In this document: positions 4,105-62,681 of the stretch, piece after piece | Layout: each line of letters begins with the position of its first letter | Position numbering within the stretch: position 1 is the stretch's first letter | NCBI GenBank assembly: GCA_035561095.1 | Contig: DATMYE010000042.1 | Coordinates: forward strand, 79,994 to 143,993 | Source: Clostridia bacterium | GTDB taxonomy: Bacteria; Bacillota; Clostridia; Christensenellales; CAG-138 | Direction: 5' to 3' | Length of the DNA stretch: 64,000 nt | Made by a program: the position numbers and the translations under genes | Notes under the pieces: generated by a model | Database searches by the model: none | The model's input: the letters and a program-made list of their open reading frames with translations, nothing else | What the model was told of the DNA's origin: nothing

Positions 4105-5457
4105 TTACGCAAACCGGTTCACGATCTCCTTAAACACCCTGCCGCGCTGCTCGAAGTTATCGAACATATCCCAGCTCGCGCAGGCGGGCGATAGCAGCAC
4201 CGCGTCGCCGGGGGCAGCTAGCATGCGCGCGCAGGCGACGGTGTCCTCAAATGATCCTGTCGCGTGGCAGTAGCCAAGGTAGCCCGTGTCCCGCGCGGTG
4301 TCGAGAATCTTCTGCTTGGTCTCGCCGAGCACGACGATGGCCTTGAGCCGGCTTCCGCGGAAATTCTCGAACAGCTCGTGAAAATCGCTGTGCTTGTCGT
4401 AGCCGCCGAGGATCAGCACTGTCGGCCGCGTCATCGCCTGAATCGCCTTGATGGTCGAATCCGGGTTGGTGCCCTTGGAGTCGTTGATATAGCGCACGCC
4501 ATCAACCTCCCGCACAAACTCGATGCGGTGCTCCACGCCGGGGAATGTGCGCAGCGTCTCGCGCACAGCACTGGGCGTGATGCCCATGCCGAGCGCGAGC
4601 AGCGAACTCAGCATCGCGTTTTCGAGGTTGTGCCCGCCGGGGATCTTGATCTCGTCCGCGCGGATGAGGTCATATTCCCCGTTCTCGTCGCGGTAGACGA
4701 CCGTGTCCCCGCGCAGAAACAGCCCGCGCGGCACCTCGCCTTTGCGCGAAAAATAATACACGCGCGCGGGTGTGAGCCGCGCCATGTCGCGCACCACCGC
4801 GTCGTCGTAGTTCAGTACCGCGATATCCTCTGCGGTCTGGTGGTCGAAAATCTTGCACTTGGCGGCAATGTAGTTCTCCATCGTGCCGAAGTGGTCGAGG
4901 TGGTCTTCCGTGATGTTGCAGACGCCAGCCGCGCGCGCATGGAAGTGCACGTTGCCCTCCAGCTGGAGCCCCGCGGTCTCCGCGACGACAACGTCGCCCG
5001 CACGCGTTTCCAGCGCGTGCTCCGTGATCGGCACGCCGATGTTGCCGAGCACGAACGTGTGCCGCCCGCCGGTCTTGAAGATCTCTCCGGTCAGCGCGGT
5101 GCAGGTGGTCTTGCCGTTGGTGCCGGTGATGCAGACGAATTCCGCGTGGCTGTAGCGGTAGCCAAGCTCGATCTCGCTGATGACCTCAATGCCCCGCTCC
5201 TGCGCCGCGCGCACGAACGGAACCGTCATCGGGATGATCGGGCTGATGACGATGAGCGTTACACCCTCAAACAGCGTCTGCGGGTCTTCGCCCAGCCGCC
5301 AATCGACAGAAACGCCGCTGAGCGCTTCGCGGAGCCCCTCGATCTCTGTCTTTTTGTCGTTGATGATCACGTCCCAGCCGGTTGCGCTGAGCAGCTTTGC
5401 CGCGCCGACGCCGCTTTTTGCCATACCGACGATCAGCGCTTTGTTGCGTTGTTCCAT
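4105..5457 (-). CDS. murD: UDP-N-acetylmuramoylalanine--D-glutamate ligase
   Basis: ORF track 4105..5502, with the start set at MEQRNKALIVGMAKSGVGAAKLL. All Mur-ligase motifs are present: GTNGKTT, HNLENA, HRIEFV..INDSKGTN, GGYDK and SPACASWDMF. Confidence 0.93.
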   Translation of the reverse strand: MEQRNKALIVGMAKSGVGAAKLLSATGWDVIINDKKTEIEGLREALSGVSVDWRLGEDPQTLFEGVTLIVISPIIPMTVPFVRAAQERGIEVISEIELGYRYSHAEFVCITGTNGKTTCTALTGEIFKTGGRHTFVLGNIGVPITEHALETRAGDVVVAETAGLQLEGNVHFHARAAGVCNITEDHLDHFGTMENYIAAKCKIFDHQTAEDIAVLNYDDAVVRDMARLTPARVYYFSRKGEVPRGLFLRGDTVVYRDENGEYDLIRADEIKIPGGHNLENAMLSSLLALGMGITPSAVRETLRTFPGVEHRIEFVREVDGVRYINDSKGTNPDSTIKAIQAMTRPTVLILGGYDKHSDFHELFENFRGSRLKAIVVLGETKQKILDTARDTGYLGYCHATGSFEDTVACARMLAAPGDAVLLSPACASWDMFDNFEQRGRVFKEIVNRFA

Positions 5458-5536
5458 GAAATATTTGCCTCCGAAGTGTGTGTTCTTGCGCGGTCTGCGC
5501 AAGACGAAAATGGAGCGAATGATTGCATCCCTGCCT

Positions 5537-6571
5537 CTAGCGGAAAAACGGCAGCAGACAGAACGCGCAGATCACCGCGGTGAGAATCGTATACATCGTC
5601 GCAATCTGCGAGGGCGGATGCCCCAGCAGCTCATAATGCCGGTGAACAGGAACCGCGCGGAAGAGTTTCTTTCCTCCTTCGCGGGTTTTGGAAAACGCCT
5701 GCAGCACGATCGAGCCGATGCTTGCCAGCAGGCAAAAGCTCATCAGCGGCAGCAGAATGATCGAGCGGCTCAAAATCGCGAGCATCGCGACAGCGCCACC
5801 GAGCGAGAGTGTGCCGGTAGCGCCCGGCTGCACGCGCGCAGGAAACACATTGTAGCGCAGAAAACCGATGGTTGCCCCCGCGACAGCCGCGGCGAAGATT
5901 GCACTGCCCGCAAGGTTATCGCCCAAGAGCAGTTCGCCGTTCTGGTTTGCGACGCTTGCCATCGCGGCAAGGATGCCGATCTGCGCCAGCGTGTAGACAT
6001 GGCTCACGCCGGTCACAAGCCCGTCTACGCCGTCGCTGAGGCGCGCCGCGTTGACCTCCGCGACGATGACGATCATCACCAGCGGTACGTACCAGAAACC
6101 GATATCCCATTCTCCGCCGGAAAGCGGCAGATGCAGTTCGGAGCCGATTAACGGCGAGCGGTATGCCCAGATTGCAACGATGGCAGCGATGACGATCTCA
6201 ACGCCGAGCATGATCTCCGGGCGGAGACCGATGCCGTCGGGATCGCGCACGCGGATAAAATCGTCCACAAACCCAAGTACGCCGAAGGCGAGCACCGCCA
6301 CCAGCGCGGGCAGCGTGAACTCCATTCCGTCGAGGCCGAAGATCAGCGTCGGGATCGCAACCGCAAGTAGCACCATCACGCCTCCCATAGTCGGCGTGGG
6401 CGGTTTCGGCGGCGGCTCTTTCTTTTTCCGGCTCTTCTCCGGCGGCGGTTCGGGCGCGGGTTCCTGCTCCGTATGTTCGGGCTTGAGGCGCGCGAGCATC
6501 GGAATCACGAGCGGGCCCAGAATCCAGACGATTGCCAGCGAGACGAGCGCGGTTATCATGATTTGCAGCAT
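5537..6571 (-). CDS. mraY: Phospho-N-acetylmuramoyl-pentapeptide transferase homologue with atypical catalytic motifs
   Basis: Clear MraY topology and motifs: TPTMGG, GFVDDF and NAARLSDGVDGL. The consensus FMGDxGS reads QPGATGT, HHH reads HRH, and cytoplasmic loop 1 is Pro/Glu/Lys-rich. See findings. Confidence 0.85.
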   Translation of the reverse strand: MLQIMITALVSLAIVWILGPLVIPMLARLKPEHTEQEPAPEPPPEKSRKKKEPPPKPPTPTMGGVMVLLAVAIPTLIFGLDGMEFTLPALVAVLAFGVLGFVDDFIRVRDPDGIGLRPEIMLGVEIVIAAIVAIWAYRSPLIGSELHLPLSGGEWDIGFWYVPLVMIVIVAEVNAARLSDGVDGLVTGVSHVYTLAQIGILAAMASVANQNGELLLGDNLAGSAIFAAAVAGATIGFLRYNVFPARVQPGATGTLSLGGAVAMLAILSRSIILLPLMSFCLLASIGSIVLQAFSKTREGGKKLFRAVPVHRHYELLGHPPSQIATMYTILTAVICAFCLLPFFR

Positions 6572-6632
6572 ATCGGTATTATACCCCTCTCAATGTTCAC
6601 CGGACAATCCCCAAAAACCAAGAGGTGGGGTG

Positions 6633-6880
6633 TTTGCCGCCTGCGGCGGCATGCAAAAACGAAAGATATTTTTTCGGAGTGCGGGCGGATGATATCCGCC
6701 CCTACAAAGAAAGATGCGGTTGGAAAATTCTTTCCTTCGAAAACCATAAACGCGAAGCCTTTTGCCCGTGAACGCGAATATCCTTGTAGGGGCGGATATC
6801 ATCCGCCCGTGCCACAAATGCACCCGAAAACGCCGTTCCGCGTGATTTGCGGACTTTGCCGCCTGCGGCGGCATGCAAAA
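6633..6880. repeat. Nested palindromic (REP-like) repeat units in the murE-mraY spacer
   Basis: Unit A, TTTGCCGCCTGCGGCGGCATGCAAAA, occurs identically at 6633-6658 and 6855-6880 in direct orientation. Its core GCCGCC-TGC-GGCGGC is a hairpin. Unit B, GGGCGGATGATATCCGCCCCTACA (6683-6706), recurs as its exact reverse complement at 6785-6808, and each copy is itself a hairpin. Confidence 0.9.
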
Positions 6881-6909
6881 CCCGCATCCGGCTTGTTTGC
6901 CAAATGCGG
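6880..6909 (-). terminator. Hairpin/terminator immediately downstream of murE
   Basis: The minus strand reads CCCGCAT-N16-ATGCGGG followed by TTTTG. It begins 22 nt after the murE stop. Confidence 0.45.
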
Positions 6910-6930
6910 GTGTTGGTTCTGAATCAATTT

Positions 6931-8364
6931 TTACAGCTCGGAGAGCAATTCTTCGACAATCTCTTTGTCATCGAAGTGATACTTCGTGCCGTTGATCTCC
7001 TGATAGTTCTCGTGGCCTTTGCCGGCGATCATGATCACGTCGTCGGTCTGCGCGGAAGAGAGCGCATAGCGGATCGCTTCCTTGCGGTTTTCGATGACGG
7101 TGTACTTTGTTCCGCTGCGCTTGACGCCTTCCTCGATGGACTCGATGATCGACATCGGGTCTTCCGTGCGCGGGTTGTCGCTCGTGATGACCGCAAACTC
7201 GGAGAACCTTCCCGCGATTTCGCCCATGATCGGGCGCTTCGCGCGGTCGCGGTCGCCGCCGCAGCCAAAGACGCAGATGACGCGGCCCTTGGTGAACTGC
7301 TGCACGGTCTTGAGGACATTTTCCAACGCGTCGGGCGTATGCGCATAGTCGACAAACACGGAGAATCCGCGGTTTGTTCTAACCGGCTCGAGTCGTCCGG
7401 AGACGCTCGTGAGCGATTCCAGCCCCGCCTTGACGGCGCTGAGCTTCATGCCGACCGCAAGCGCCATCCCGGCTGCGCCCATCGCGTTGAACACCGAGAA
7501 CAGGCCGGGAATCGCGAGATTCATCAGCACTTCACCCTCCGGCGTATGCAGGTCAAAGCGCACGCCGTCGGTCGTGATGTCGATATCCGTCGCGGAGATG
7601 TCCGCGCGGTCGCGCACGCCGAAGGTCAGAATCGGGATCGTGAGTCCTTCCATGATGCGCGAGGAATAGGGATCGTCCACGTTGACGACCGCTTTTTTGC
7701 TGTTGAGGAACAGCGTCTTCTTCGCGGCAAGGTAGTTATCAAAGGACTTGTGATAGTCCAGATGATCCTGCGTGAGGTTCGTAAAGAGGCCGACATCGAA
7801 CTTGATGCCGTGCACACGATATTGCTCCAGCGCATGGGAGCTGGTCTCCATGACCACGAGATCGACATGCGCATCCGCCATCATGCGGAGGATACGGAAA
7901 AGATCGACCGATTCCGGCGTGGTGCGGTCGGTGTGGATGCTCTCGTTGCCGATGAGGTTGCGGATGGTGCCGATGACGCCAACCTTCTTGCCGGTCTGTT
8001 CGGCAATCGCCTTGACCATGTAGGTCGTGGTGGTCTTGCCGTTGGTACCGGTGACGCCGAGCATCATCATCTCGCGCTGGGGATAGCCGAAGAACGCGGC
8101 GGATATCTCCGCCATGGCCTTGCGCGCGTTTTTCACGACGAGCTGCGGCACCGCAAACGGAAGCTCTTTTTCCACCAGCAGCGCCGTTGCGCCGTTTGCA
8201 ATCGCGGCCTCTGCGAACGTGTGTCCGTCAAACAGGCTGCCGACGATGCAGCAGAAGAGGCTGCCTTTCTTCACTTTTCTGGAGTCATACTCGATGGAGA
8301 CGATGTCCGTGTCTTCGCCTTCATAGCGCAGGCCGGTTGCCATTGCCAGTTCCGAAAGCAGCAT
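6931..8364 (-). CDS. murE: UDP-N-acetylmuramoyl-L-alanyl-D-glutamate--2,6-diaminopimelate ligase
   Basis: ORF track 6931..8421, with the start set at MLLSELAMATGL, preceded by GGAGGT. Motifs present: GTNGKTTTT, ETSSHAL, TNLTQDHLDYH and DYAHTPDAL. The DNPR motif (ITSDNPRTEDP) is typical of meso-DAP-adding enzymes. Confidence 0.93.
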   Translation of the reverse strand: MLLSELAMATGLRYEGEDTDIVSIEYDSRKVKKGSLFCCIVGSLFDGHTFAEAAIANGATALLVEKELPFAVPQLVVKNARKAMAEISAAFFGYPQREMMMLGVTGTNGKTTTTYMVKAIAEQTGKKVGVIGTIRNLIGNESIHTDRTTPESVDLFRILRMMADAHVDLVVMETSSHALEQYRVHGIKFDVGLFTNLTQDHLDYHKSFDNYLAAKKTLFLNSKKAVVNVDDPYSSRIMEGLTIPILTFGVRDRADISATDIDITTDGVRFDLHTPEGEVLMNLAIPGLFSVFNAMGAAGMALAVGMKLSAVKAGLESLTSVSGRLEPVRTNRGFSVFVDYAHTPDALENVLKTVQQFTKGRVICVFGCGGDRDRAKRPIMGEIAGRFSEFAVITSDNPRTEDPMSIIESIEEGVKRSGTKYTVIENRKEAIRYALSSAQTDDVIMIAGKGHENYQEINGTKYHFDDKEIVEELLSEL

Positions 8365-8468
8365 GTCGTAACCTCCCGTCGCGCGGTTCTTCGCGCTCAA
8401 TAAAATGAAACAGTATTTCACCGCATTCCGGAAATCCGGGATGCGCTAGGAATGTTTGCCTGAAAGCC

Positions 8469-10679
8469 TTATCCCTCCGGCAGCGGCGTCGGCGGAGCCG
8501 GCGTGGCGTTCGGGTCGGGCGTGATCGAAGGCGAAGGCGAGGGCTTCGGGAACGTGACGTAGACCACCGTACCCGGGTCGACAAACGTGCCTTCCGCGAT
8601 CGACTGCGTGTCGATGACGCCGGTGCACTGCGTCTTATCAAAGCTCAGCACGAGGCCAATCGCCGCAAGCTTATCAAACGCATCCTGTCTGCGCCTGCCG
8701 ACGAGATTCGGCACCTGCACCTGCCCTTTGTAGAGTTCGTCGTCATTGTACGTGGTCACGCCCGTATACAGGATGATGGTCGAACCGGCTGGTACTTTTG
8801 TGTTGCCCGCAGGGAACTGATACGAAACGACCGCTGCATCCTCAGACTTGACCGTATATGCCATGAAGCCCGACTGTTGCAGCGTGTAGACCGCGTCCCG
8901 CGCCGTCATGTTGGTGACGTCCGGCACAGTGGCCATCTTGGTTTCCTGCGCGTTCGGCAAAATGCCGTAATACTGCACCAGATCCGAGAAGATCTTGCCG
9001 ACCCAGTAGCCCGCAATGCTCTTTGCTTCCATATAGGGTACCGCAGGCTCGTCGATGACCAGCATGCAGACGAGCTGCGGGCTGTCGTTGGCCGAAAGAT
9101 AGCCGATATACGAGGCGACGACGCGCATGCGCGAAGGCGTCACGCCGTCCTCTTCAAACTTGCGGGAAACGCCGCTGATTCCGCCGACCGTGTAGTTGGG
9201 CACCTGCGCGTTGTTGCCGAGGCCCTTGGTCGCGACGGTTTCCAGAAGCGAGCGCATCGTTGCAGAAGCGCTGGTGCTGATCACGCGGCGCAGAATGGTC
9301 GGCTCGTTTTTGACGATGACCGTTCCGTCCGTCGAGGTGATGTTGTCCACCACGTACGGCTGCATCAGCGTGCCGCCGTTGATGACCGCGCAGAAGGCAT
9401 TCGCCATCTGCATCGAGGTATTGGTAATGTTTTCGCCAAACGCGATGCGCGAAAGATCGCTCTCGCGGATGTACTTGCGATGGACGACCTCTCCGGTGTC
9501 TTCGCTCGGAATGCCGACATTGGTCTCCACGCCGAAGCCGAAGTTATAGATGTAGTCGTAAAACTTGTTGATCCCCGTCGCGAGCGCGATATCCGCCATC
9601 GAGAGATTGCAGGAGTTGCTGAGCGCTTCGGAAAGCGTCTGCAATTTGTGCCCCGCGGTGTCCCAGCAGGCGACCTTCTCCAGGCGGAAGATCTTGAAGC
9701 CTTCGCAGTCATATTGGGTGGAAAGCGTCGCAACGCCCGCATCGACGCCGGCTGCCGCCGTGATCACGTCAAACATAGAGCCGCTCTCGTAGGTATCGGT
9801 CACCATACGCATGCGGGACATGGACATGAGCTCGGTGACCATATCGCGCGGAGGCGCGTTGAGGTCAAACGAGGGATACGAGGAGATGGCCAGCACCTCG
9901 CCCGTGTTCGGATCCATGATGAGGCCCGAAACGGTGGCGGCGCGGTTGAGCTCATAGCACTGCTTGAGGTATTTCTCCAGATAGCTCTGCGTGACGGAGT
10001 CCGCCGTGAGCTTCATGTTGTAGCCTTCCACCGGCGCGAGATAATCCTCCTCGCCGTAGGAAAGCGGGTTGTTCTTTCGGTCTACCTCGATGACAAGCCG
10101 TCCCGCGGTGCCCGCGAGATAGGAGTTGTACTCCGCTTCCAATCCCGTCTGGCCTTCGGTTTCGATGCCGGTGAAGCCGACGAGCTGGGTAAAGAGGTTG
10201 CCAAAGGGATAGTAGCGCTTCATGTCCGTGGTATAGGAAATACCGTTGCCCAGCTGCAGCGCCTCCAGCTGGTCGATGACGGAGCTCTCCACCTGCCGCT
10301 TGAGCTGCACCTGCAGACGTTTCGGGTCGGAGATGCGCTCCAGCACGTAATCGTAGTTGAGGCCGAGCACTTCGGAGACCTCGGTGGCGACGCGGACGCG
10401 GTCGTCCGCCGCGATGGCGGGCGGGTTTGCGAGCACGCGGTAGGCGGTGCCGCTCTGCGCGAGTACGAGGCCGTTGCGGTCGGTGATCTTGCCGCGCTGG
10501 GCTGCGAGGTTCTGGCGGCGCGTCCACTGCACTTCCGCCTTGGCTTTGAGTTCAGGTCCCTGAACGATCATAACCTGCGTCAGGCGCAGTGCCAGCAGAA
10601 GCATGAGTAAGCCTGCAAATACCATCAGCAGGACAAGTTTGCGTTTAATCTTCGGCGCGGGGGCCGCTGTTTTAGCCAT
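8469..10679 (-). CDS. Class B penicillin-binding protein (FtsI/SpoVD/PBP2B family) with two PASTA domains and a Pro-rich tail; catalytic motifs degenerate
   Basis: The protein has an N-terminal TM anchor, a PBP dimerisation domain and a transpeptidase domain that aligns with SpoVD. PASTA repeats are TVPDVTNMTARDAVYTL... and VQVPNLVGRRRQDAFDKL.... Motif 1 reads SMFD and motif 3 reads ISG. See findings. Confidence 0.9.
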   Translation of the reverse strand: MAKTAAPAPKIKRKLVLLMVFAGLLMLLLALRLTQVMIVQGPELKAKAEVQWTRRQNLAAQRGKITDRNGLVLAQSGTAYRVLANPPAIAADDRVRVATEVSEVLGLNYDYVLERISDPKRLQVQLKRQVESSVIDQLEALQLGNGISYTTDMKRYYPFGNLFTQLVGFTGIETEGQTGLEAEYNSYLAGTAGRLVIEVDRKNNPLSYGEEDYLAPVEGYNMKLTADSVTQSYLEKYLKQCYELNRAATVSGLIMDPNTGEVLAISSYPSFDLNAPPRDMVTELMSMSRMRMVTDTYESGSMFDVITAAAGVDAGVATLSTQYDCEGFKIFRLEKVACWDTAGHKLQTLSEALSNSCNLSMADIALATGINKFYDYIYNFGFGVETNVGIPSEDTGEVVHRKYIRESDLSRIAFGENITNTSMQMANAFCAVINGGTLMQPYVVDNITSTDGTVIVKNEPTILRRVISTSASATMRSLLETVATKGLGNNAQVPNYTVGGISGVSRKFEEDGVTPSRMRVVASYIGYLSANDSPQLVCMLVIDEPAVPYMEAKSIAGYWVGKIFSDLVQYYGILPNAQETKMATVPDVTNMTARDAVYTLQQSGFMAYTVKSEDAAVVSYQFPAGNTKVPAGSTIILYTGVTTYNDDELYKGQVQVPNLVGRRRQDAFDKLAAIGLVLSFDKTQCTGVIDTQSIAEGTFVDPGTVVYVTFPKPSPSPSITPDPNATPAPPTPLPEG

Positions 10680-10702: not shown

Positions 10703-11290
10703 TCAACCGCCTGCAGGCGGCTGTTCCCCCCCGCCCGTAGTGCCTGGCTCAGTCGTTGTCGGGTCCGGCGTTGTCTCCGGCACCGGTGTTGTTGTCTCCG
10801 TTGTTCCCGTGGGCGAAGGCAGGCTGTTGTCAAACGGCAGCCGGTCGCCGATGCGGACATACTGATCCCTATCGGGATACTTCATTCCGTAGGCTTCCGC
10901 AACCTCCTGCGCGTCCTGAATGGTCACCGCGCATTCGATCTGAACGTCCAGCTCGTTGATTCGCAGATCCGTCAGGTCGATTTCGCTGTTGAGCGCGTTG
11001 ATGTCCGCGTATGCACGCGAAATACGCTCATATCCCGAGAGCGTAAAGAGAACCATGCCCGCAAAGATGAATCCGCTGATGATCAGGCCGATGCGGCCAA
11101 GCGACGTCATCTCCGGTTTTTCGACGCGAACACCGGGCTCCGGTGCTCGGCGAGCGCCGGATTTCGTGCGCGGTGCGCGCGATTCGCTTTCTTCAATCGC
11201 TTCCTTGGGCAAATAAAGCCTCGTCGTTGGCGAGCGGCCTTTTTTTCGGTCTTCTTCGAAGCGGATATCCAATGAACAATTCCCTTCCAA
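10703..11290 (-). CDS. ftsL: FtsL-like cell-division protein (bitopic, coiled coil, Thr/Pro-rich tail)
   Basis: It sits between rsmH and the bPBP. It has a single TM (IGLIISGFIFAGMVLFTLSGY) followed by a heptad-like stretch (INALNSEIDLTDLRINELDVQIE). The start codon is uncertain. Confidence 0.6.
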   Translation of the reverse strand: MEGNCSLDIRFEEDRKKGRSPTTRLYLPKEAIEESESRAPRTKSGARRAPEPGVRVEKPEMTSLGRIGLIISGFIFAGMVLFTLSGYERISRAYADINALNSEIDLTDLRINELDVQIECAVTIQDAQEVAEAYGMKYPDRDQYVRIGDRLPFDNSLPSPTGTTETTTPVPETTPDPTTTEPGTTGGGEQPPAGG

Positions 11291-11344: not shown

Positions 11345-12286
11345 CTAGATCTTTTCGATGCAGCGGAGCTTTGCGCTGGTCGAGCGGGAATTGCGCGTTT
11401 CCTCTTCTAGAGAGGCGGTCAGCGGTTTCTTGGTGAGGATCTTTGCCTTGGGTTCCTTTCCGCAGATGCAGATCGGCGCCGAAGGCGGGCAGGTGCAGGG
11501 ATTCTCAAAACGACGGAATGCCTGCTTGACGATTCGATCCTCCAGTGAATGAAATGTAATTATACACAGTCTTCCGCCTTTTTGCAACAGATCGCAGGCC
11601 TCCTCCACCGCGCGGTCAAGGCCGCTGAGCTCGCCGTTTACCTCGATGCGCAGCGCCTGAAAAGTGCGTCGCGCGGGGTGTTGCGGCTCATTTCGATACT
11701 TTGCGGGGATGGCGTCGCGCACGATCTGCGCCAGCTGAAGGGTGGTTTCGATCGGAGATTGTTCACGAATGTTACAAATTCTCTCCGCAATTCGTTTGCT
11801 GAAGCGCTCCTCTCCGTAGGCAAAGAAGATGCGCGTGAGTTCCGCTTCAGGATACTTGTTGATGATATCCCGTGCGGAAAACGCCGCGCTCTGATCCATG
11901 CGCATGTCCAACGGTGCATCCGTCTTATAGGAAAACCCGCGCTCCTGGGTGTCCAGCTGATGCGAGGATACACCCAGATCGAGGAGGATTCCGTTGACTT
12001 CATGCACGCCGACGCCGGAAAGCAGCGTCTTCATATCAAAAAAGTTGCCGTGCAGCGCGGTAAATCGGCTGCCGTAAACGGCGAGCCGTTCCCCGGCCGC
12101 GCGCACGGCTTCCCAGTCCCTGTCAATTCCAATGAGCCTGCCCGTCTGTAACAGGCGGGAAAGAACCGCCTCGGCATGGCCCCCGCCGCCGAGCGTTCCG
12201 TCGATGAATGTGCCGCCGCGCTCCGGAGCAAGATACTCCAGCGTCTCGTTCAGCAGCACGGGGATATGCGAAAATTGCTCGCTCAT
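11345..12286 (-). CDS. rsmH: 16S rRNA (cytosine1402-N4)-methyltransferase
   Basis: Motifs present: HIPVLLNE, DGTLGGGGHAEAVL, LDLGVSSHQLD..RGFSY and FHSLEDRIVK. Confidence 0.95.
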   Translation of the reverse strand: MSEQFSHIPVLLNETLEYLAPERGGTFIDGTLGGGGHAEAVLSRLLQTGRLIGIDRDWEAVRAAGERLAVYGSRFTALHGNFFDMKTLLSGVGVHEVNGILLDLGVSSHQLDTQERGFSYKTDAPLDMRMDQSAAFSARDIINKYPEAELTRIFFAYGEERFSKRIAERICNIREQSPIETTLQLAQIVRDAIPAKYRNEPQHPARRTFQALRIEVNGELSGLDRAVEEACDLLQKGGRLCIITFHSLEDRIVKQAFRRFENPCTCPPSAPICICGKEPKAKILTKKPLTASLEEETRNSRSTSAKLRCIEKI

Positions 12287-12735
12287 ATGCCGAGCGCCGC
12301 CAGATGCGCGAGTGCGTCCCCATAGTTCTCCTCGCAGGCCGCGTTATAGGCCGCGAGTGTTTCAGGATTCCAGATCTCCACCCGTTCGCCGACGCCGATG
12401 AGCGTCGCGTCCTTGCTTAGCCCCGCGAGATCGCGAAGCTGCGAAGGAATCAGGATGCGGCCCTGCTTGTCGATTTCGCAGGCAGCAGCCATCGAGTAGA
12501 TCTTTCTGCGGATCGCCTGCCCCTTGACGTCCGTCACGGGCAGCGCGGAGAGCTTGTGCGAAAAACGCTCCCACTCTTCCAGCGACATGCCGGAAAGGCA
12601 GGTTGCGGTTGCGGACTCTAACAGGCCGAGCGTGATGACGAGCGTATCGCCCACGTTTTCGCGCCATTTGGCCGGGATAAACACGCGGCCCTTCGCGTCC
12701 AGCATATGCTCGAATGAACCGATCAGCACACGCAC
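12283..12735 (-). CDS. mraZ: Transcriptional regulator MraZ
   Basis: Two DxxxR-type repeats are present (MLDAKGRVFIPAKWR and EIDKQGRILIPSQLR). The GTG start at 12735 is preceded by GGAGGAGGAG. The stop overlaps the rsmH start. Confidence 0.92.
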   Translation of the reverse strand: MRVLIGSFEHMLDAKGRVFIPAKWRENVGDTLVITLGLLESATATCLSGMSLEEWERFSHKLSALPVTDVKGQAIRRKIYSMAAACEIDKQGRILIPSQLRDLAGLSKDATLIGVGERVEIWNPETLAAYNAACEENYGDALAHLAALGI

Positions 12736-12963: not shown

Positions 12964-13126
12964 GACATTGGCTCTGTGCCAGATATGGTACTTGAGCACC
13001 AAACCCGCCGGCAAAACCCGCTAAAAAAGCGGTTTTCTTCATTTTTGCCGGGGTTCTTTGCGTCTGGAGGCGGGTTTTCTCCGCCTTGTCATCCGCCATC
13101 ATTTTTCGTCAGAATGGGAGCTGCTC

Positions 13127-15082
13127 ATGGCATCGGATTATACAGTAGATAAAATCAAAATCATGGAAGGTTTGGACGCAGTCCGTATGCGCCCGGGCAT
13201 GTACATCGGCTCGACGGGGCAGCGCGGACTCCACCACCTGCTCTGGGAGATCATCGATAACGCCATCGACGAGGCGGCGAACGGCTATGCCAACGAGATC
13301 GCTGTCACGCTCCATAAGGATAACTCCGTCACGGTCGTAGACAACGGCCGCGGCATCCCCGTGCAGATTCACGAGAAGATGGGCGTCTCCGGCGTGGAGG
13401 TCGTCTTTACCCAGCTGCACGCGGGCGGCAAATTCGGCAACGATTCCTACGGCTACTCCGGCGGTCTCCACGGCGTCGGCGCATCGGTCGTCAACGCGCT
13501 GTCCGAGTGGGTCGAGGTCGAGGTCGCAACCGACGGCAGGCTCTACAAAATCCGCTTCACAAGCGAGGAGGACGCCACCGGCAAGATCATCTCCGGCAAA
13601 GCTGTTGCCCCGCTGGAAGAGGTCGGGCGCACGCGCCGCCAGGGCACCAGCGTGACCTTTATGCCAGACGAGCGGGTCTTTGAAACCGTGGAGATGAGCT
13701 ACGACATCATCTCCAAGCGCATCCGCGAGCTCTCCTATCTCAACCGCGGCACGAAGATGATCCTCGTCGATGAGCATGCCAATCATCAGAAAAAGGTCGA
13801 GTATCAGTTCAACGGAGGCTTGAGCGACTTCGTCAGCTATCTCAACGCGGACAAGACGCCGCTCTACGATCCGCCGATCCACTTCATCGGCACGTCCGGC
13901 GGCATCGTCGTCGAAGTCGCGCTCCAGCACAACGACGGCTACGCGGACAACATCTTCTCCTATGTCAACAACATCCCGACCACTGAGGGCGGCACGCACG
14001 AGACGGGCCTCAAAGCCGCGCTGACCAAGGTGCTCAACGATTACTGCCGTAAGATGGGTTACCTCAAGGACAAGGATGCTCCGCTGACCGGCGAAGACTT
14101 CCGCGAGGGAATCACCGCCGTGCTCTCGCTCAAGATGCGCACGATCCAGTTTGAAGGGCAGACCAAGACCAAGCTGGGCAATACCGAAGCGCGCCCCGCG
14201 GTCGAGAGCGTCGTCATCGAACAGCTCGTGCCGTATCTGGAAGATCTCAAGCACGGCGAGGTCGCGACCATCATCGCGGAAAAAGCGGTCAAGGCCGCAA
14301 AGGTGCGCGAGGCCGCGCGCAAGGCAAAGGCCACCGCGCGCGAGAAGAACAAGCTCGAAAACGCGCCGCTGGTCGGCAAACTCAGCAGTTGCTCCGGCCG
14401 CGACTACAGCAAGAACGAGCTGTTCATCGTCGAAGGCGACAGCGCGGGCGGCTCCGCCAAGCAGGGCCGCGACCGCAGATTTCAGGCGATCCTGCCGCTG
14501 CGCGGCAAGCCGCTGAACGTGGAAAAAAAGCGCATCGATCAGGTGCTGCAAAACGAGGAGTTCCGTTCAATCATCACCGCGGTCGGCACCGGCATCGGCG
14601 AGGATTTCGACATCTCCTCGCTCAAATACGACAAGATTATCATCCTCTCGGACGCGGATCAGGACGGTGCGCACATCCGCGCAATCCTCTTGACGTTCTT
14701 CTATCGTTATATGAAGGAACTGGTCACGGAAGGGCATGTCTATATCGGCCTTTCCCCACTCTACAAGGTACAGAAGGACACAAAGCGTATCTATTGCTAT
14801 GACGACGAGGAGCTGCGCGCCGCGACCAAATCGGTCGGCAAGGGCTACACGATCCAGCGCTACAAGGGTCTTGGCGAGATGAACCCGGAGCAGCTCTGGG
14901 AGACGACCATGAACCCCGAAGGCCGCGCGCTGGTGCGGGTCACCATCGAGGACGCGGCGGACGTCGAACACCTCGTCACCGTGCTCATGGGCGACAAAGT
15001 CCAGTCGAGAAAAGAATACATCTTCGAAAACGCGGACTTTAATAAAAACGCAAGCGAGATGTTTGAGAAACTAAAAGACTAG
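13127..15082 (+). CDS. Type IIA DNA topoisomerase subunit B (GyrB/ParE family)
   Basis: ORF track 13058..15082. ATG 13127 follows GGGAG. Motifs present: GLDAVRMRPGMYIGS, LHHLLWEIIDNAIDE, GGLHGVGASVVNALS, the TOPRIM motif EGDSAGGSAKQGRDR, DADQDGAHI and RYKGLGEMN. Confidence 0.93.
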   Translation: MASDYTVDKIKIMEGLDAVRMRPGMYIGSTGQRGLHHLLWEIIDNAIDEAANGYANEIAVTLHKDNSVTVVDNGRGIPVQIHEKMGVSGVEVVFTQLHAGGKFGNDSYGYSGGLHGVGASVVNALSEWVEVEVATDGRLYKIRFTSEEDATGKIISGKAVAPLEEVGRTRRQGTSVTFMPDERVFETVEMSYDIISKRIRELSYLNRGTKMILVDEHANHQKKVEYQFNGGLSDFVSYLNADKTPLYDPPIHFIGTSGGIVVEVALQHNDGYADNIFSYVNNIPTTEGGTHETGLKAALTKVLNDYCRKMGYLKDKDAPLTGEDFREGITAVLSLKMRTIQFEGQTKTKLGNTEARPAVESVVIEQLVPYLEDLKHGEVATIIAEKAVKAAKVREAARKAKATAREKNKLENAPLVGKLSSCSGRDYSKNELFIVEGDSAGGSAKQGRDRRFQAILPLRGKPLNVEKKRIDQVLQNEEFRSIITAVGTGIGEDFDISSLKYDKIIILSDADQDGAHIRAILLTFFYRYMKELVTEGHVYIGLSPLYKVQKDTKRIYCYDDEELRAATKSVGKGYTIQRYKGLGEMNPEQLWETTMNPEGRALVRVTIEDAADVEHLVTVLMGDKVQSRKEYIFENADFNKNASEMFEKLKD

Positions 15083-15134
15083 TTTTCACTACGTCGCAAG
15101 CGAACATGATTGACGGACGATAAGGAAGCACGAT

Positions 15135-17531
15135 ATGCCGAAAGAACCCATTCAACTCAAACTTGAGAAGATCATCGAGCGCACCATGGACGAGGTCATG
15201 CACCAGTCCATGATGCCCTATGCCGAGCACGTCATCCTCGAGCGCGCGCTGCCGCGCGTAGAGGACGGCCTCAAGCCCGTGCAACGGCGCATCCTCTACA
15301 CCATGCTGGAGCTGAGCCTCACGCCCGACAAGCCGCACCGCAAGAGCGCGCGTATCGTCGGCGACTGCCTGGGTAAATACCATCCGCACGGCGACACCTC
15401 CGTCTATGACGCGATGGTGCGCATGGCGCAGCCGTATAACATGTGCGTGCAGCTGGTGGACGGCCACGGCAACTTCGGTAGCGTGGACGGCGACAGCGCG
15501 GCTGCGATGCGCTATACCGAAGCGCGCATGACGGAAGCCGCCATGCAGCTCTTGCGCGACATCGAGAAAGACACCGTCAGTTTTTCGTTTAACTTTGACG
15601 ACACGCTCAAGGAGCCGGATCTGCTGCCCGGACGCTTCCCGAACCTGCTCGTCAACGGTGCCAGCGGCATCGCGGTGGGTTTGGCCACCAACATCCCGCC
15701 GCACAACCCCGTGGAGGCGATCAACGCCGTCATCGCGGTGATGGAAAACCCGCGTATCACACTCGAAGAGCTGATGAAGATCATCCCCGCACCGGACTTC
15801 CCCACCGGCGGATTCATCCTTGAATCCTCCGAGGTGGAGCAGGCCTACCGCACCGGTCGCGGCAAGATCTACATGCGCGCCAAGACGCATTTTGAAGAGC
15901 AGAAGAACGGCAAGACGTTCATCGTCATCACCGAGCTGCCGTTTCAGGTCAACAAAGCGAACATGCTCGAGAAAATCCTCGCCGTCAGTCAGGAAAAGAA
16001 GGCGATGTTCTCCGGCATTGCGGATATTCGCGACGAAAGCGACCGCACGGGCATGCGCGCCGTCATCGAGGTCAAGAAGGACGGCGACCCGGAACGCATC
16101 CTCCAGTACCTGTTTAAGTATTCCGACCTGCAGATGACGTTCGGCGTCAACATGGTCGCCATCGCGGGCGGCAAACCGCAGCAGCTCAATCTCAAGCAGA
16201 TCATCGCGCACTACATCCGCCATCAGCGGGATGTGGTCACGCGCCGTACGCAGTTTGAGCTGGACGCGGCGCTCCGCCGCGAGCACATCTTAGCGGGCTT
16301 GATGATCGCGGTGGACAACCTCGACGCCGTCATTGCACTCATCCGCGCAAGCAAATCCCCCAAGGAAGCGCGCGAAGGGCTGATGAAGACCTTCTCTCTC
16401 TCCGAGGTGCAGGCGCAGGCGATCCTCGATCTGCGTTTGCAGCGCCTGACCAACATGGAGCTGATCACCATCAAGCGCGAATACGCCGAGGTGGTGCGCC
16501 TCATCGAAGAACTCCGCAGCATCCTCGCGAGTGAGAAAAAGCTCCTTGCGCTGATCAAAAAGGAACTCACCGAGATTCGCGAGCAGCTCGCGGTCTCCCG
16601 CAGGACGACGTTTGTCGCCTCCGACGATATGCCCGTCGACGAGTCGGAGGATTTCACCGTCGTGGAGGACGTCACCGTCTGCATCTGCGAAGGGCTGAAG
16701 GTGCGGCGCATGCCGACTAAGGCCTTCTCGCTCGCCGCAATTTCGGAAGACAAGCCGCTGTTCGTGCTCGAAACCCGCTCGAACCAGCGTATCCGCATCT
16801 TCACGGATCAGGGCGCGCTGCTCTCACTTGCGGTCGAGGAGCTGCCGGAGACCCGCGCGACTACAAGAGCCGCAAACCTCGCCTCGCTCCTGCCGTTTGA
16901 GAAGAACGAGAAGATCATCGCGCTCTATCCCGACGACGAGGACGGCGACTATCTCTTCTATCTGCGCGACGGCAACGTCAAGCGCACGCCTTGCTCCGAA
17001 TACCGCATCCGCGTCAAGCGCACCGCGGCGGTTGCGCTACGGGACAAGGACCGTGTGCTCCGCATTGAAAAATACGAACCGCGCTCGATTCTGATGGTCA
17101 CGAAGCTCGGCATGAGCATCCGCTTTGCGGCGGATACGATCCCCGCGATGGGCCGCGTCTCCGGCGGCGTGAAGTGCGTCAAGCTCGACAAAGGCGACGA
17201 GGTGATCTTTGCCGCCCTCGTGCCGGACGAAGCCGAGGTGTTGACCATCACCGACAAGGGCTTTGGCAAGCGTTCCCCGATGTTTGACTACGACCTGCAG
17301 GGCAGAAACGGCAAGGGCCTCAAGACCTTCGACCTCAAGAAAAACGGCTCCAACGGCACCTGCATCGCGGTTGTCGCGGTGCTGACCGAGCAGCAGACGC
17401 TGACGCTCCTCCAGCGGCACGGCGGAAAGACGCCGATCCGCACCAATGAGGTGCGCATCGAGCCGCGCGCCGGCAAGGGCAATATGCTCGTCGCAGTCGT
17501 GCTGGACGACGACGTGGTCGGGGTCGAGTAA
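15135..17531 (+). CDS. Type IIA DNA topoisomerase subunit A (GyrA/ParC family; ParC-like signatures)
   Basis: Motifs present: [41 protein letters not shown] (catalytic Tyr) and NFDDTLKEP. There is no QRRGGKG GyrA box at the start of the C-terminal domain. Confidence 0.93.
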
Positions 17532-17551
17532 CCAAACAAGAGCTACAACAA

Positions 17552-17588
17552 AAGGCACTCTCCTATTTCGGGCGAGTGCCTTTTCTTT
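17552..17588 (+). terminator. Rho-independent terminator after the topoisomerase operon
   Basis: GGCACTC (17554-17560) pairs with GAGTGCC (17574-17580), followed by TTTTCTTT. Confidence 0.6.
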
Positions 17589-17679
17589 ACGCGAAATTAT
17601 TATGATTCACATCATAGAGTGGTACGCTTATCATGTTTTTATGTTATGATCAGACCATCCTATCTTTATTGGAGGATCT

Positions 17680-18360
17680 ATGAAACTGGCAAAACAAATC
17701 ATTGTGCTCATGCTTCTTGTGTCTCTCTGCTTATCATTGCTTGCCTGTACAGATGCCAATGTTCTGGGTGTTCGCAACCCGACAACGCCACTGGCGGTCA
17801 GCGACGGTTCTATGATCAGCGATTCTGAAACGCCCGTTGCCTATCGCAATGACTATTTCAAATATACCTGCGAACTGCCGGACGATTGGTATGTGATGAA
17901 TGAAGATGAGATTGCTCAGATGGTCGGTTACACGACTGATGCGCTAGGAGAAGGCAGAACTGCCGATATCCTTAAGGAATCAATGGAAAAGGGCGAAAAT
18001 CTGATTGACTTCTATGCGGTTTCCGGCGACTTTTCTCAGACCACCAACGTTGTTATTGGGAAAGCCAAGACGCTTGAACTGCTCATTTCCGAGCAAGCAA
18101 TGATTGACGCAGGTGCAACGCTTTTGACCGACGGGCTAACCAACATGGGTGTAACGAACATTTCACACCGTTCGGAGCGTGTGGAGTTTCTCGGGAAAGA
18201 GCGTGTTGCGCTCTATGTTCAGGGAGATTACCAAGGTGGTGATTTATACGAAATCATCTTTATTATGCGCAAAGGGCTCTATATCTCAAATTTCGCATTC
18301 ACCGGTTCCAACCAATCTGCCGTAGCGAATTCCATCCAATACTTCCAACCCATCGATTGA
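17680..18360 (+). CDS. Lipoprotein of unknown function
   Basis: The signal peptide ends in a lipobox (MKLAKQIIVLMLLVSLCLSLLAC). The RBS GGAGGA lies at 17661-17666. The segment looks AT-richer than its neighbours. Confidence 0.75.
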   Translation: MKLAKQIIVLMLLVSLCLSLLACTDANVLGVRNPTTPLAVSDGSMISDSETPVAYRNDYFKYTCELPDDWYVMNEDEIAQMVGYTTDALGEGRTADILKESMEKGENLIDFYAVSGDFSQTTNVVIGKAKTLELLISEQAMIDAGATLLTDGLTNMGVTNISHRSERVEFLGKERVALYVQGDYQGGDLYEIIFIMRKGLYISNFAFTGSNQSAVANSIQYFQPID

Positions 18361-18379
18361 TCGAGCCATTCTGTTCCAC

Positions 18380-18414
18380 AAAAAAAAGCTGCCCCTGCGA
18401 GCAGCTTTTTTTTA
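18380..18414. terminator. Bidirectional terminator
   Basis: A8-GCTGCCCCTGCGAGCAGC-T9 between convergent genes. Confidence 0.7.
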
Positions 18415-18440
18415 TTGCGAAGTTGCGATGAAATAGCAGC

Positions 18441-18692
18441 TTACCGTTTCCCGATGATCAACCTGCTGATCAAAATCAGGATACACGCGCCACCGAGGGC
18501 GATGAAAAACCCGCCGATCGACCAGACGTTGCCGGAGCCGATGCCCGCGTAGTCCGCGAGCCAGCCGCCGACCACCGCGCCCGCGATCCCGACGATGATG
18601 TTGCGGATCAAGCCGCCCTTGCCGTGCATAATCTTGCTGGCAAGCCAGCCGATGAGCGCGCCGATCAATAACCAACCAAGAAAATTCCACAT
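18441..18692 (-). CDS. GlsB/YeaQ/YmgE-family (transglycosylase-associated) small membrane protein
   Basis: MWNFLGWLLIGALIGWLASKIM...NIIVGIAGAVVGGWLA is the characteristic Gly-zipper pattern of this family. Confidence 0.85.
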   Translation of the reverse strand: MWNFLGWLLIGALIGWLASKIMHGKGGLIRNIIVGIAGAVVGGWLADYAGIGSGNVWSIGGFFIALGGACILILISRLIIGKR

Positions 18693-18746
18693 AAACCGGT
18701 TCCTCCTAATCGTTGTTGTTTGAACTATTGCGCGAAAGTCTTCGCG

Positions 18747-19295
18747 TTATTCCGTCTTGTTCGTGTTTGGCGCGGTAGTCTGCGTGCCTGTCTGCATCTT
18801 CTTCTTGAAGAACACGCGGAAGATCACGTTTGCCACCGCCGCGATGACGGGGCCTAGGATCATGCCCGCTCCGCCGAAGAGTATCAGCCCACCCACAGAG
18901 GCAAGCAGCGTAATCCACGGGGAAACGCCTATGCTCTTGCCCGTGATGATGGGATCGAGAATCATCCGCAACACGACCATCGCGATATAGGTCGCTCCCA
19001 CGCAGATCGCCATATGCGGGTTTTTCGCGATCAGCGCGATGATCGCCCACGGCACAAACACGATGCCGCTGCCGATGACCGGCACGAGATCGAGTAGCCC
19101 GATCGCAATCGCGATCAAGGGCGACCACCAGCCGAGACCCGTGACGATCATGCCGATGGTGATGACCACGAAGTTGACCCCGAAGAGGATCAGCTGCGCC
19201 TTGCCGAATCCCAGCGCCGCGCTGCCGAGCTCCTTCAGCGCGGTGACCACGCGCTTTTTTGTTTCGATCTTTTTGTTGCCGTCCTGTTGTTCCAT
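18747..19295 (-). CDS. Half-size AI-2E (PerM/YtvI, UPF0118) family-like membrane protein
   Basis: GLLDLVPVIGSGIVFVPWAIIAL ... ILDPIITGKSIGVSPWITLLASVGGLILFGGAGMILGPVIAAV matches the C-terminal four TMs of AI-2E transporters. Only 182 aa are present, and no upstream N-terminal half was found. Confidence 0.6.
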   Translation of the reverse strand: MEQQDGNKKIETKKRVVTALKELGSAALGFGKAQLILFGVNFVVITIGMIVTGLGWWSPLIAIAIGLLDLVPVIGSGIVFVPWAIIALIAKNPHMAICVGATYIAMVVLRMILDPIITGKSIGVSPWITLLASVGGLILFGGAGMILGPVIAAVANVIFRVFFKKKMQTGTQTTAPNTNKTE

Positions 19296-19441
19296 GTGCT
19301 CTCTTTCTCATTCGGGATCTTCCCGAATGCTATGTCACGATTATACCGGAAAATCCGCTTGCATACAATCGAAAATACGTGAGGAATTCGTGACAAATGC
19401 ACAAAAGAGGAGGTCTCCCTCCTCTTTCACGCGTGTGATCG

Positions 19442-34645: not shown

Positions 34646-34807
34646 ACTAGTAAGCCCCTTTTCTGATCGTTGTTGGAATAACGGTATCACTTACTCGATG
34701 GATAGGCAAGTTCAAATTTTTCGAATGTTCACTTCTGTTGTCAGATTTTTACGCGTACTATAGATATATTGGATGAGAATTCTCAATACACTACAGGAGG
34801 TTCCATC

Positions 34808-35350
34808 ATGGATGCTGTCACCGATCTGCTCCGGCGCGATCCGGAACGCGCGCTCGATCAAATGCTGCGCGCGTATACGGGCTTGGTCTATCACGCTGCC
34901 GCCGCAGTCCTCGGGCGCAACTCTCACGAGGAGATTGAAGAATGTGTCAGCGATGCGTTTCTGGTCATCTACAAAAGTCGGGAACGGCTGGATTTTTCGC
35001 AGGGTTCCGTCAAGGCATATCTTTGCGCAACGGCGCGAAACCTCGCGATCAATCGTCTGAAGAAAAGCGCGTCCTCGCCGCTGTCCGCATTGAACGAACT
35101 CATGCAATCAACCGAGGAAACGGAATCCTCCGCTTTGCGAAATCTGGAGGCGGATGAACTCATTCAGGCCGTATTGTCGTTGGGTGAACCGGATAGCAGG
35201 ATCATCCTCTATCGTTACTACTTTGATATGCCATCAAAACAGATAGCAAAGCTGCTCGGCATAAAGCCGAATACCGTCGACCAGCGGCTCCGCCGCGCGC
35301 TGAAAAAACTCAACCACCTCTCGAAAGGAGGTCTGTCTCATGGAGAATAA
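34808..35350 (+). CDS. ECF-type RNA polymerase sigma-70 family factor
   Basis: ORF track 34769..35350. ATG 34808 follows AGGAGG (34795-34800). It has a region 2 (VSDAFLVIYKSRERLD...YLCATARNLAINRLKK) and a region 4 HTH (SKQIAKLLGIKPNTVDQRLRRALKKL). Confidence 0.88.
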   Translation: MDAVTDLLRRDPERALDQMLRAYTGLVYHAAAAVLGRNSHEEIEECVSDAFLVIYKSRERLDFSQGSVKAYLCATARNLAINRLKKSASSPLSALNELMQSTEETESSALRNLEADELIQAVLSLGEPDSRIILYRYYFDMPSKQIAKLLGIKPNTVDQRLRRALKKLNHLSKGGLSHGE

Positions 35351-45082: not shown

Positions 45083-45205
45083 CCGTGTTGACGAATCCAA
45101 AGGAGGATGTATGGTTGCATCGCACCTATCGTTTTGCTACAATTCAGACAATTGATAGTTGTCGGTCAACCCATTCAAAATAAGCGGGAAGGACATCGAG
45201 CAACC

Positions 45206-62625: not shown

Positions 62626-62652
62626 GCTTGCAAAAAACCTCACGTGGCAATT

Positions 62653-62681
62653 ATTATACCACAGCAAAACCTGTATTTGAA
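62653..62681 (-). promoter_or_regulatory. Candidate promoter of the CotH gene
   Basis: The minus strand reads TTCAAA (62681-62676), a 17-nt spacer, then TGG-TATAAT (extended -10; TATAAT at 62658-62653). Confidence 0.4.

Follow-up and report, generated by a model that had tools for sequence, protein, structure and literature searches.

A divisome-type class B penicillin-binding protein with degenerate catalytic motifs, maintained across a clade of Christensenellales

Class B penicillin-binding proteins (bPBPs) are classic beta-lactam targets and are usually regarded as the enzymes that cross-link the septum; the lysine of their SxxK motif activates the serine, and the KTG lysine, together with the Thr that follows it, binds the substrate carboxylate. 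Their SEDS partners are allosterically activated by them; in the complexes known so far, both SEDS and FtsL touch the bPBP at its pedestal. Mutants made in the laboratory in Bacillus subtilis, Clostridioides difficile and other species hint that the indispensable job of a bPBP may be a non-catalytic one, namely activation and organisation of the SEDS protein. In B. subtilis, PBP2B is essential though its S309A variant supports division, the cells then dividing by use of PBP3 (Sassine et al. 2017, PMC5656894), and in C. difficile asymmetric division can proceed with SpoVD(S311A), provided that SpoVE is present (PMC12713402). A Zn2+-binding motif of bPBPs has been defined as two Cys/Asp residues, an invariant His, and a Cys as the X of SxN (Sacco et al. 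2022, PMC9334274). The present work concerns a bPBP gene carried by a 64,000-nucleotide stretch, here referred to as the window, of contig DATMYE010000042.1 from a Clostridia bacterium of the order Christensenellales. This gene was found to encode the sole bPBP of the dcw cluster (genes for division and the cell wall) in the window, and its product lacks the lysines of both SxxK and KTG.

Motif columns were set with phmmer against three bPBPs of known structure, namely 7rcz (C. difficile SpoVD), 5uy7 and 3equ (Neisseria gonorrhoeae PBP2). In each of the three, D304 of the window protein fell in the column of the lysine of SxxK and I501 in that of the lysine of KTG or KSG, and neither the profile nor the pairwise alignments showed a lysine at either functional position. 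The first-pass annotation of this DNA had read the motifs as SMFD and ISG, with a retained SCN, and these readings match the sequence exactly at the coordinates of Table 1. Past motif 3 the residues are V-S-R-K-F in place of T-A-Q-K-Y, the Thr that follows KTG being replaced by Val. C325, C338, H344 and C357, putative Zn2+ ligands, align with the Cys/Cys/His/Cys of C. difficile SpoVD. The architecture proposed in the same annotation (transmembrane anchor, dimerisation domain and two PASTA domains) agrees with the Pfam domains and with a helix spanning residues 11-38 in the AlphaFold2 model.

A database search returned 120 homologue clusters (clustered at 90% identity) with 51-96% identity to the window PBP, which were aligned with the query using MAFFT. 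Both lysines are absent from 85 of the 121 aligned sequences, which read (S/T/D)-x-F-(D) and (I/V/F)-(T/S/G)-G-V-S-R-K-F, and 35 retain SIFK, SCN and KTGTAQKY. In the tree (all trees in this work are neighbour-joining trees) 81 of the 82 full-length degenerate sequences form one clade, that of the window PBP, and the sisters of this clade are two active sequences, P0077 and P0085, implying that both lysines were lost once. The orthologues, to which the first-pass annotation had pointed as a check on the two residues, bear out the loss, as position 304 is D in 75 of the 81 full-length clusters (G in 3, S in 2, E in 1, Lys in none) and position 501 is I (60), F (12) or V (9) in all of them. The nucleophile position 301 is occupied by S in 56 clusters, T in 22 and D in 3; such loss of the Ser, seen in 25 of 81, is expected only once acylation has already been abolished. 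Motif 2 keeps its S in 78 clusters and its N in 67, with some deep branches devoid of SxN (SSS/SNS), while T504V is found in 91% of the clade and A505S, Q506R and Y508F in 100%. Each of the four putative Zn2+-ligand positions is kept in 75 to 81 of the 81 members. A migrated, WNK-like lysine was considered and rejected: the sole Lys gained, K372 (67% of the clade), is also Lys in the active C. difficile SpoVD, and no compensating lysine was gained anywhere in the alignment of the degenerate clade.

Scanning one genome per GTDB species gave 36 related loci, all from metagenome-assembled genomes (MAGs) labelled Christensenellaceae, Christensenella, Clostridiales or Eubacteriales, several of which are complete chromosomes of 2.9-3.9 Mb. 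The complete chromosomes of the clade include OW818651.1, OY762290.1, OY762962.1, OY776633.1, OY771363.1, OY764017.1 and OY762278.1. All 33 full-length genes, from the window and from 32 GTDB species representatives that belong to uncultured, Christensenellaceae-like Clostridia, are degenerate in their motifs and intact as genes, with no frameshift or stop, and the replaced residues show synonymous codon variation (GAC/GAT for D304, ATC/ATT for I501, five codons for R506). The ratio of nonsynonymous to synonymous substitution (dN/dS) was estimated by the Nei-Gojobori method with pairs binned by dS and murE as the control gene. For dS bins of 0.05-0.6, 0.6-1.0 and 1.0-1.5 it was 0.057, 0.128 and 0.145 in the transpeptidase domain, 0.036, 0.067 and 0.091 in the pedestal, and 0.032, 0.047 and 0.054 in murE, values to be taken as approximate because dS is near saturation in most pairs (median 1.17). 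Unbinned values were consistent with these, and all were far below 1. The view of the first-pass annotation that the gene looks maintained rather than decaying is thus upheld by the intact open reading frames (ORFs) and by purifying selection, with dN/dS of 0.06-0.15 in the transpeptidase domain.

The distribution of change along the protein was uneven. Of 92 pedestal sites that are at least 90% conserved in the active relatives (sister-conserved sites), the degenerate clade retains 88; the figure is 26 of 27 for the PASTA region and 115 of 169 for the transpeptidase domain, where 20 further sites have taken on a different, conserved residue (switched sites) and the other 34 have relaxed. Retention differs between pedestal and transpeptidase domain with p = 4.6e-8 (Fisher's exact test). 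The changed sites form clusters past SxxK on helix alpha2, around SxN, on strands beta3 and beta4, and where the last helix begins, and the switched residues are 81-100% conserved (D304, V504, S505, R506, F508, A552, G557, Y558, N487, E416, M361). Within the degenerate clade, mean pairwise identity is higher in the pedestal (0.855) than in the transpeptidase domain (0.755), which is the reverse of the order in the active relatives (0.710 and 0.733, respectively). It is 82% across residues 1-45, and the transmembrane, pedestal and PASTA regions are all better conserved than the transpeptidase domain.

The top NCBIfam model for the window PBP was spoVD_pbp (TIGR02214, an equivalog), with 466.8 bits, below the cutoff of 688. 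The AlphaFold2 model, built on a 53-sequence alignment, had a pLDDT of 82 and a pTM of 0.72, and when used as a Foldseek query it matched best 7rcz SpoVD (TM-score 0.84), which is also the nearest solved homologue (E = 1.9e-86); scores were 0.80-0.85 across SpoVD and PBP3, and further matches were PBP2x, Pseudomonas aeruginosa PBP3, and FtsI within the FtsWIQBL complex. Its predicted fold, its architecture and its gene position assign the protein to the divisome-type bPBPs, within the Zn-binding, SpoVD-like family. Since it fails in two of the three catalytic motifs by which penicillin-binding proteins are defined, its predicted character is best conveyed by calling it a bPBP-derived pseudoenzyme. 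A 577-aa ORF runs antisense to the gene (8877-10610, plus strand); the window contains many long antisense ORFs, which resemble shadow ORFs of 57% G+C DNA and score poorly under a codon-usage model.

The minus-strand order of genes, mraZ-rsmH-(FtsL-like)-PBP-murE-mraY-murD, is identical in all 36 related loci, and places the PBP gene between the FtsL-like ORF and murE in the mraZ-headed cluster, as for a divisome bPBP. No Pfam or NCBIfam match was obtained for the FtsL-like ORF, whose position is kept in 36 of 36 loci. Past murD, there are unrelated plus-strand genes and no SEDS gene, ftsQ, ftsA or ftsZ. A second PBP was sought by tblastn and found neither in the 64-kb window nor within 10 kb of the gene in the 36 loci. 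Comparison of about 45 larger window ORFs with Pfam and NCBIfam disclosed no PBP, SEDS or YkuD (L,D-transpeptidase) protein, and no sporulation genes were seen among those scanned.

The place of the missing SEDS gene was approached through the relatives. In two loci of gut Christensenellales (L039 and L040), murD is followed by a SEDS-murA-ftsQ-like-ftsA-ftsZ block that is missing from the window (compare L039 10001-22268), and in P0118, a more distant active relative, also from gut Christensenellales, by SEDS-murA-(569 aa)-ftsA-ftsZ. The cluster of the immediate active sister P0077 (L037) already ends after murD, as in the window; therefore, the rearrangement preceded the inactivation. A SEDS search with the gut-clade FtsW of L039 was dominated by human-gut Christensenellales and gave no match tied to the degenerate clade. 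A profile of four other SEDS proteins retrieved a group of 381-aa SEDS proteins, two members of which are found in MAGs that carry the degenerate bPBP as well. P0490, on JBDKRL010000019.1, comes from the same MAG as the degenerate locus L033 (JBDKRL010000001.1), and P0495, on JBDKTD010000035.1, from the same MAG as the degenerate locus L034 (JBDKTD010000263.1). Both pass the FtsW equivalog TIGR02614 (381 bits, cutoff 337.5) and fail the SpoVE model (370 bits, cutoff 448.8), and each shows 72-73% identity to the SEDS protein that the active relative encodes in its dcw cluster. Both retain an ESDF motif, and the Asp in it lines up with residue 275 of P. aeruginosa FtsW, which we take to be the catalytic Asp. 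An ftsQ gene follows each of them (L047 and L050, on contigs other than that of the bPBP), and no PBP was found within 10 kb of either. As judged from MAG binning, in two MAGs other than the genome of the window, the clade keeps an intact FtsW and FtsQ, now encoded outside the cluster after relocation.

Some members of the clade carry an insertion of about 3.4 kb past murD (L002, at 16400-19800, and also L006, L010 and L027). It was considered as the home of the missing SEDS gene and rejected, the L002 insert encoding a KatG-type catalase-peroxidase and a Fur-family regulator. This content is notable in its own right, as the organisms of the clade are presumed strict anaerobes.

From an exhaustive HMMER search of 1.84 billion representatives, the closest 150 clusters at 50% identity were examined. 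All three motifs are present in 131 of these, and about 10 full-length ones are degenerate, among them (motifs 1, 2 and 3) P0255 (TLFG/GCT/KGG), P0267 (PVFE/ACA/IAG), P0272 (SLFK/SCN/MAA), P0274 (SSFG/SCN/TTG), P0304 (SIFN/MCI/LAG), P0305 (KLMG/GCK/MTD) and P0324 (QAYG/NCG/YTG), as well as P0328 and P0344. These are spread over no fewer than five distinct branches, each of them among the representatives nearest to the query. P0304/P0324/P0344 and P0305/P0328 are taken together, as are P0108/P0256; P0108 and P0109 represent two further, partial degenerations inside the active sister group. The Cys-Cys-His-Cys motif is kept in all degenerate representatives but P0274, from assembly GCA_050948665.1, which has CCYC. 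P0255, P0267, P0274, P0304 and P0305 are each the sole bPBP in the same dcw slot. In all of these except P0267, whose contig ends after mraY and before a possible SEDS position, the bPBP is followed by murE-mraY-murD-SEDS with ftsQ, ftsA or ftsZ nearby, and the SEDS protein keeps the catalytic Asp motif and scores 311-366 bits on the FtsW model. The named source organisms of the degenerate lineages are Christensenellales or Christensenellaceae, and it seems that within this order the divisome bPBP has lost its catalysis repeatedly. The first-pass annotation knew of no divisome bPBP with such a double substitution. No published description of a naturally motif-degenerate, intact dcw bPBP or of a PBP pseudoenzyme was found, and a 2025 global survey of morphogenetic synthases reported frameshifted ftsI pseudogenes and no motif-degenerate intact genes; the window clade is nonetheless not unique, being the largest of several independent degenerations in Christensenellales.

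Probably, though far from surely, the window protein is a catalytically dead divisome bPBP that has been kept as an activator or scaffold of FtsW, with cross-linking carried out by other enzymes. Its transmembrane helix and pedestal would still dock onto FtsW and the FtsQ/FtsL-type subcomplex, and the docked protein would supply the allosteric activation and the scaffolding that the SEDS polymerase needs. Peptide cross-links would come from elsewhere, for instance from a class A PBP, from a further bPBP or from L,D-transpeptidases, and the remodelled, conserved pocket and the PASTA domains may help to place the complex on peptidoglycan. In C. difficile, a class A PBP is involved in division (PMC10693644), and L,D-transpeptidases account for about 70% of cross-links and are essential (PMC11348318, PMC13344953). 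Several points weigh against this explanation. Loss of acylation is predicted from the motifs only, and no second PBP was seen in the window, or within 10 kb in the 36 loci, as a source of cross-links. The link between FtsW and the degenerate bPBP depends on MAG binning, though two independent MAGs agree, and as FtsW is not adjacent to the bPBP their pairing rests on homology and on there being no other bPBP beside FtsW. The near-saturation of dS blunts the estimates of selection, and the 20 switched, strongly conserved sites suggest that the transpeptidase domain does something specific beyond mere folding.

This last point bears on a different explanation, which we consider rather unlikely and which overlaps with the FtsW activator or scaffold while exceeding a passive one. 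The protein would be a neofunctionalised sensor or regulator, in which the transpeptidase-like pocket, the Zn-thiolate site and the PASTA domains make up a non-catalytic module for ligand or redox sensing; by binding stem peptides or lipid II, or by reacting to oxidants, it might control FtsW or some other effector as a gate. The 81-100% conservation of the residues at the 20 switched sites and the clear purifying selection on the transpeptidase domain are in keeping with such a role, as is the persistence of the Cys-Cys-His-Cys motif in the clade and in nearly all other degenerate lineages, a motif that has been proposed as a redox sensor (PMC9334274). However, several of the new residues (R506 and F508, within ARKF) are present in active bPBPs, N. 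gonorrhoeae PBP2 for example, and are thus not evidence of a new site. Likewise, the tolerance of I, F or V at 501 and of S, T or D at 301 suggests relaxed rather than new specificity, and no ligand or output partner could be identified.

That the protein is still an enzyme of unconventional mechanism, using a Ser/Thr-Asp dyad or assistance from Zn to cross-link or trim peptidoglycan, possibly in a beta-lactam-insensitive manner, is most improbable. A Ser or Thr does occupy the nucleophile position in 78 of 81 members with the highly conserved Asp304 one helical turn away, SxN is kept in most of them, and the domain is under purifying selection. Against this, three clusters have Asp at the nucleophile position, some deep branches are without SxN, and the carboxylate-binding KTG(T) strand is dismantled (I/F/V-x-G-V). 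A working PBP or serine beta-lactamase devoid of both lysines is not known to us. Moreover, the homologue of known structure holds its Zn in a Cys3His site that is closed and structural (PMC9334274).

Similarly slight is the chance that the protein is a sporulation-specific SpoVD orthologue, serving only the cortex or the asymmetric septum and not vegetative division. The top family model and the nearest solved homologue are both SpoVD, and in many Clostridia the dcw-encoded pair of bPBP and SEDS protein is sporulation-specific (PMC10693644). Yet the score lies far under the equivalog cutoff, the SEDS protein of the clade passes the FtsW and fails the SpoVE cutoff and is encoded beside ftsQ, the scans of the window showed no sporulation genes, and the cultured relatives in Christensenellales are all reported as non-sporulating (PMC12694931). 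As SpoVD catalysis is essential for the cortex (PMC12713402), a dead SpoVD could not serve cortex synthesis. Finally, sequencing or assembly errors at the two codons, or a decaying pseudogene, have nothing in their favour beyond the unusual residues themselves, and are refuted by the same substitutions in 85 independent protein clusters from many studies, by the 33 of 33 full-length genes free of frameshifts and stops, by dN/dS far below 1, and by the synonymous variation at the replaced residues.

If the window protein is indeed a non-catalytic activator or scaffold of FtsW, the clade looks like a natural experiment, in which the lysines were lost once and the bPBP persisted through at least 32 species-level lineages. 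Non-catalytic function alone then appears sufficient to retain the protein, and the sites kept and released map that function residue by residue. The repeated loss within Christensenellales, an order that includes health-associated gut bacteria, points to redundant or alternative cross-linking and to an unusual intrinsic response to beta-lactams. A bolder proposal, conceivable and put forward with considerable reserve, is that throughout the order Christensenellales the polymerisation of septal glycan is no longer coupled to D,D-transpeptidation by the divisome bPBP: the dcw bPBP would have become a non-catalytic, regulatory subunit at least six times, its remodelled pocket, Zn-thiolate site and PASTA domains would sense the wall or redox state to gate FtsW, and septal cross-links would come entirely from other enzymes, L,D-transpeptidases or a class A PBP for example. 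If true, this would be a distinct mode of bacterial division whose core bPBP is no beta-lactam target.

Table 1 Features of the bPBP gene, its product and its cluster in the window (strand as given), and positions of degenerate bPBPs in other loci (in the numbering of each locus; the L045 contig stops short of the SEDS position, and in the other four an FtsW-type SEDS gene follows murD).
Feature	Position	Strand	Remarks
Class B PBP gene, degenerate active-site motifs	8469..10679	minus	736 aa, ATG start
Transmembrane anchor, residues 11-38	10566..10649	minus	single long helix in AlphaFold2 model; hydrophobic IKRKLVLLMVFAGLLMLLLALRLTQVMI
Pedestal (PBP dimerisation domain), residues 59-206	10062..10505	minus	PF03717, 78.4 bits
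Transpeptidase-fold domain, residues 253-557, predicted non-catalytic	9009..9923	minus	PF00905, 186.8 bits
Motif 1, SxxK replaced by S301-M-F-D304	9768..9779	minus	aligned under STFK/SIMK/SAIK of solved bPBPs; stretch TDTYESGSMFDVITAAA at 9750-9800
Motif 2, SxN kept as S356-C357-N358	9606..9614	minus	C357 doubles as fourth Zn ligand
Motif 3, KTG replaced by I501-S-G	9171..9179	minus	aligned under KTG/KSG; stretch NYTVGGISGVSRKFE at 9153-9197
Putative Zn2+-binding motif, SpoVD/PBP3 type	9609..9707	minus	C325 9705-9707, C338 9666-9668, H344 9648-9650, C357 9609-9611
Two PASTA domains, residues ~580-640 and 653-712	8544..8942	minus	PF03793, 2 stretches, 62.2 bits
Pro/Ser/Thr-rich C-terminal tail, residues 713-736	8472..8543	minus	PSPSPSITPDPNATPAPPTPLPEG; low pLDDT
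FtsL-like small membrane protein, assigned by position only	10703..11290	minus	ftsL slot between rsmH and PBP gene
rsmH (mraW), 16S rRNA methyltransferase	11345..12286	minus	PF01795, 408 bits
mraZ	12283..12735	minus	PF02381
murE	6931..8421	minus	three Mur ligase domains
mraY	5537..6571	minus	PF00953; TIGR00445, 192.1 bits (cutoff 192.05)
murD, last cluster gene	4105..5502	minus	MurD-like_N and Mur ligase domains
Degenerate bPBP, locus L041	938-3151		
Degenerate bPBP, locus L042	10001-12154		
Degenerate bPBP, locus L044	10001-12271		
Degenerate bPBP, locus L045	442-2538		
Degenerate bPBP, locus L046	10001-12208		

Other features of the cluster and its surroundings were recorded. A divergent gyrB-gyrA pair lies beside mraZ (13058-17531, plus strand), an arrangement kept in all sufficiently long loci of the degenerate clade and shared by two active relatives, L037 and L039. 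L042 differs, its gyrB-gyrA pair being placed after the SEDS gene. No murF is present between murE and mraY (6571-6931) in the window or in any related locus read, active relatives included, and must therefore lie elsewhere. MraY is unusually divergent, with 55-83% identity across the clade where MurE has 84-96%, and it is also about 50-53% identical to the active relatives. Its fast evolution was considered as a clade-specific co-change and rejected, and it is not tied to inactivation of the PBP because MraY is equally divergent when compared with active relatives.

Farther away in the window, a 1120-aa ORF (59305-62667, minus strand) carries four lamin-tail domains, Fn3-associated and CHB_HEX_C modules and a C-terminal CotH kinase domain, and its product is probably a large surface or secreted protein. 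Two membrane acyltransferases of the Acyl_transf_3 family (39216-40286 and 45107-46366, both plus strand) could O-acetylate peptidoglycan or a polysaccharide. Downstream of ruvB, a 766-aa ORF (54637-56937, minus strand) gave a weak, sub-threshold match to DivIVA (21.7 bits) and none in NCBIfam, and no family matches were obtained for a 628-aa ORF (41568-43454) and a 486-aa ORF (35340-36800). The start of the latter is overlapped by 11 nt by the gene for a sigma factor of the extracytoplasmic function type (34769-35350, plus strand), of which it could encode the anti-sigma factor.

Compared with known systems, the window protein has the same architecture and the same Cys-Cys-His-Cys motif as C. 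difficile SpoVD (7RCZ). The latter, however, has intact SxxK, SxN and KTG motifs and is sporulation-specific, and cortex synthesis needs its catalysis (PMC9334274, PMC12713402), whereas the window protein scores below the equivalog cutoff and comes from an order whose cultured members are non-sporulating. Serine PBPs that bind Zn2+ have been described from anaerobic Firmicutes (Sacco et al. 2022), and all four of their ligand positions are conserved here; those described are active enzymes, while here the predicted Zn motif stands beside what appears to be a dismantled active site. With FtsI/PBP3 of the FtsWIQBL complex (P. aeruginosa, 8BH1), the protein shares its fold and the slot after ftsL and before murE, and, as in that system, a cognate FtsW equivalog and ftsQ are present in genomes of the clade. 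FtsI differs in being an active, beta-lactam-sensitive transpeptidase without PASTA domains, whereas in the window clade the motifs are gone and ftsW and ftsQ relocated. The other degenerate dcw bPBPs represent independent events with different replacement residues, and in P0255, P0274, P0304 and P0305 the SEDS gene still follows murD, where the cluster of the window clade ends.

The likeness to B. subtilis PBP2B, drawn already in the first-pass annotation, is accurate (PMC5656894) and extends to C. difficile SpoVD(S311A). Like the window protein, PBP2B is a dcw-encoded, PASTA-bearing division bPBP, and the combination of an essential protein with a dispensable transpeptidase activity implies that its role in the divisome is structural or activating. 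PBP2B(S309A) is a point mutant made in the laboratory, and a specific second bPBP, PBP3, rescues it; the loss in the window clade, in contrast, arose in nature, extends to both lysines and in many members to the serine, is fixed in the clade, and has persisted through extensive speciation.

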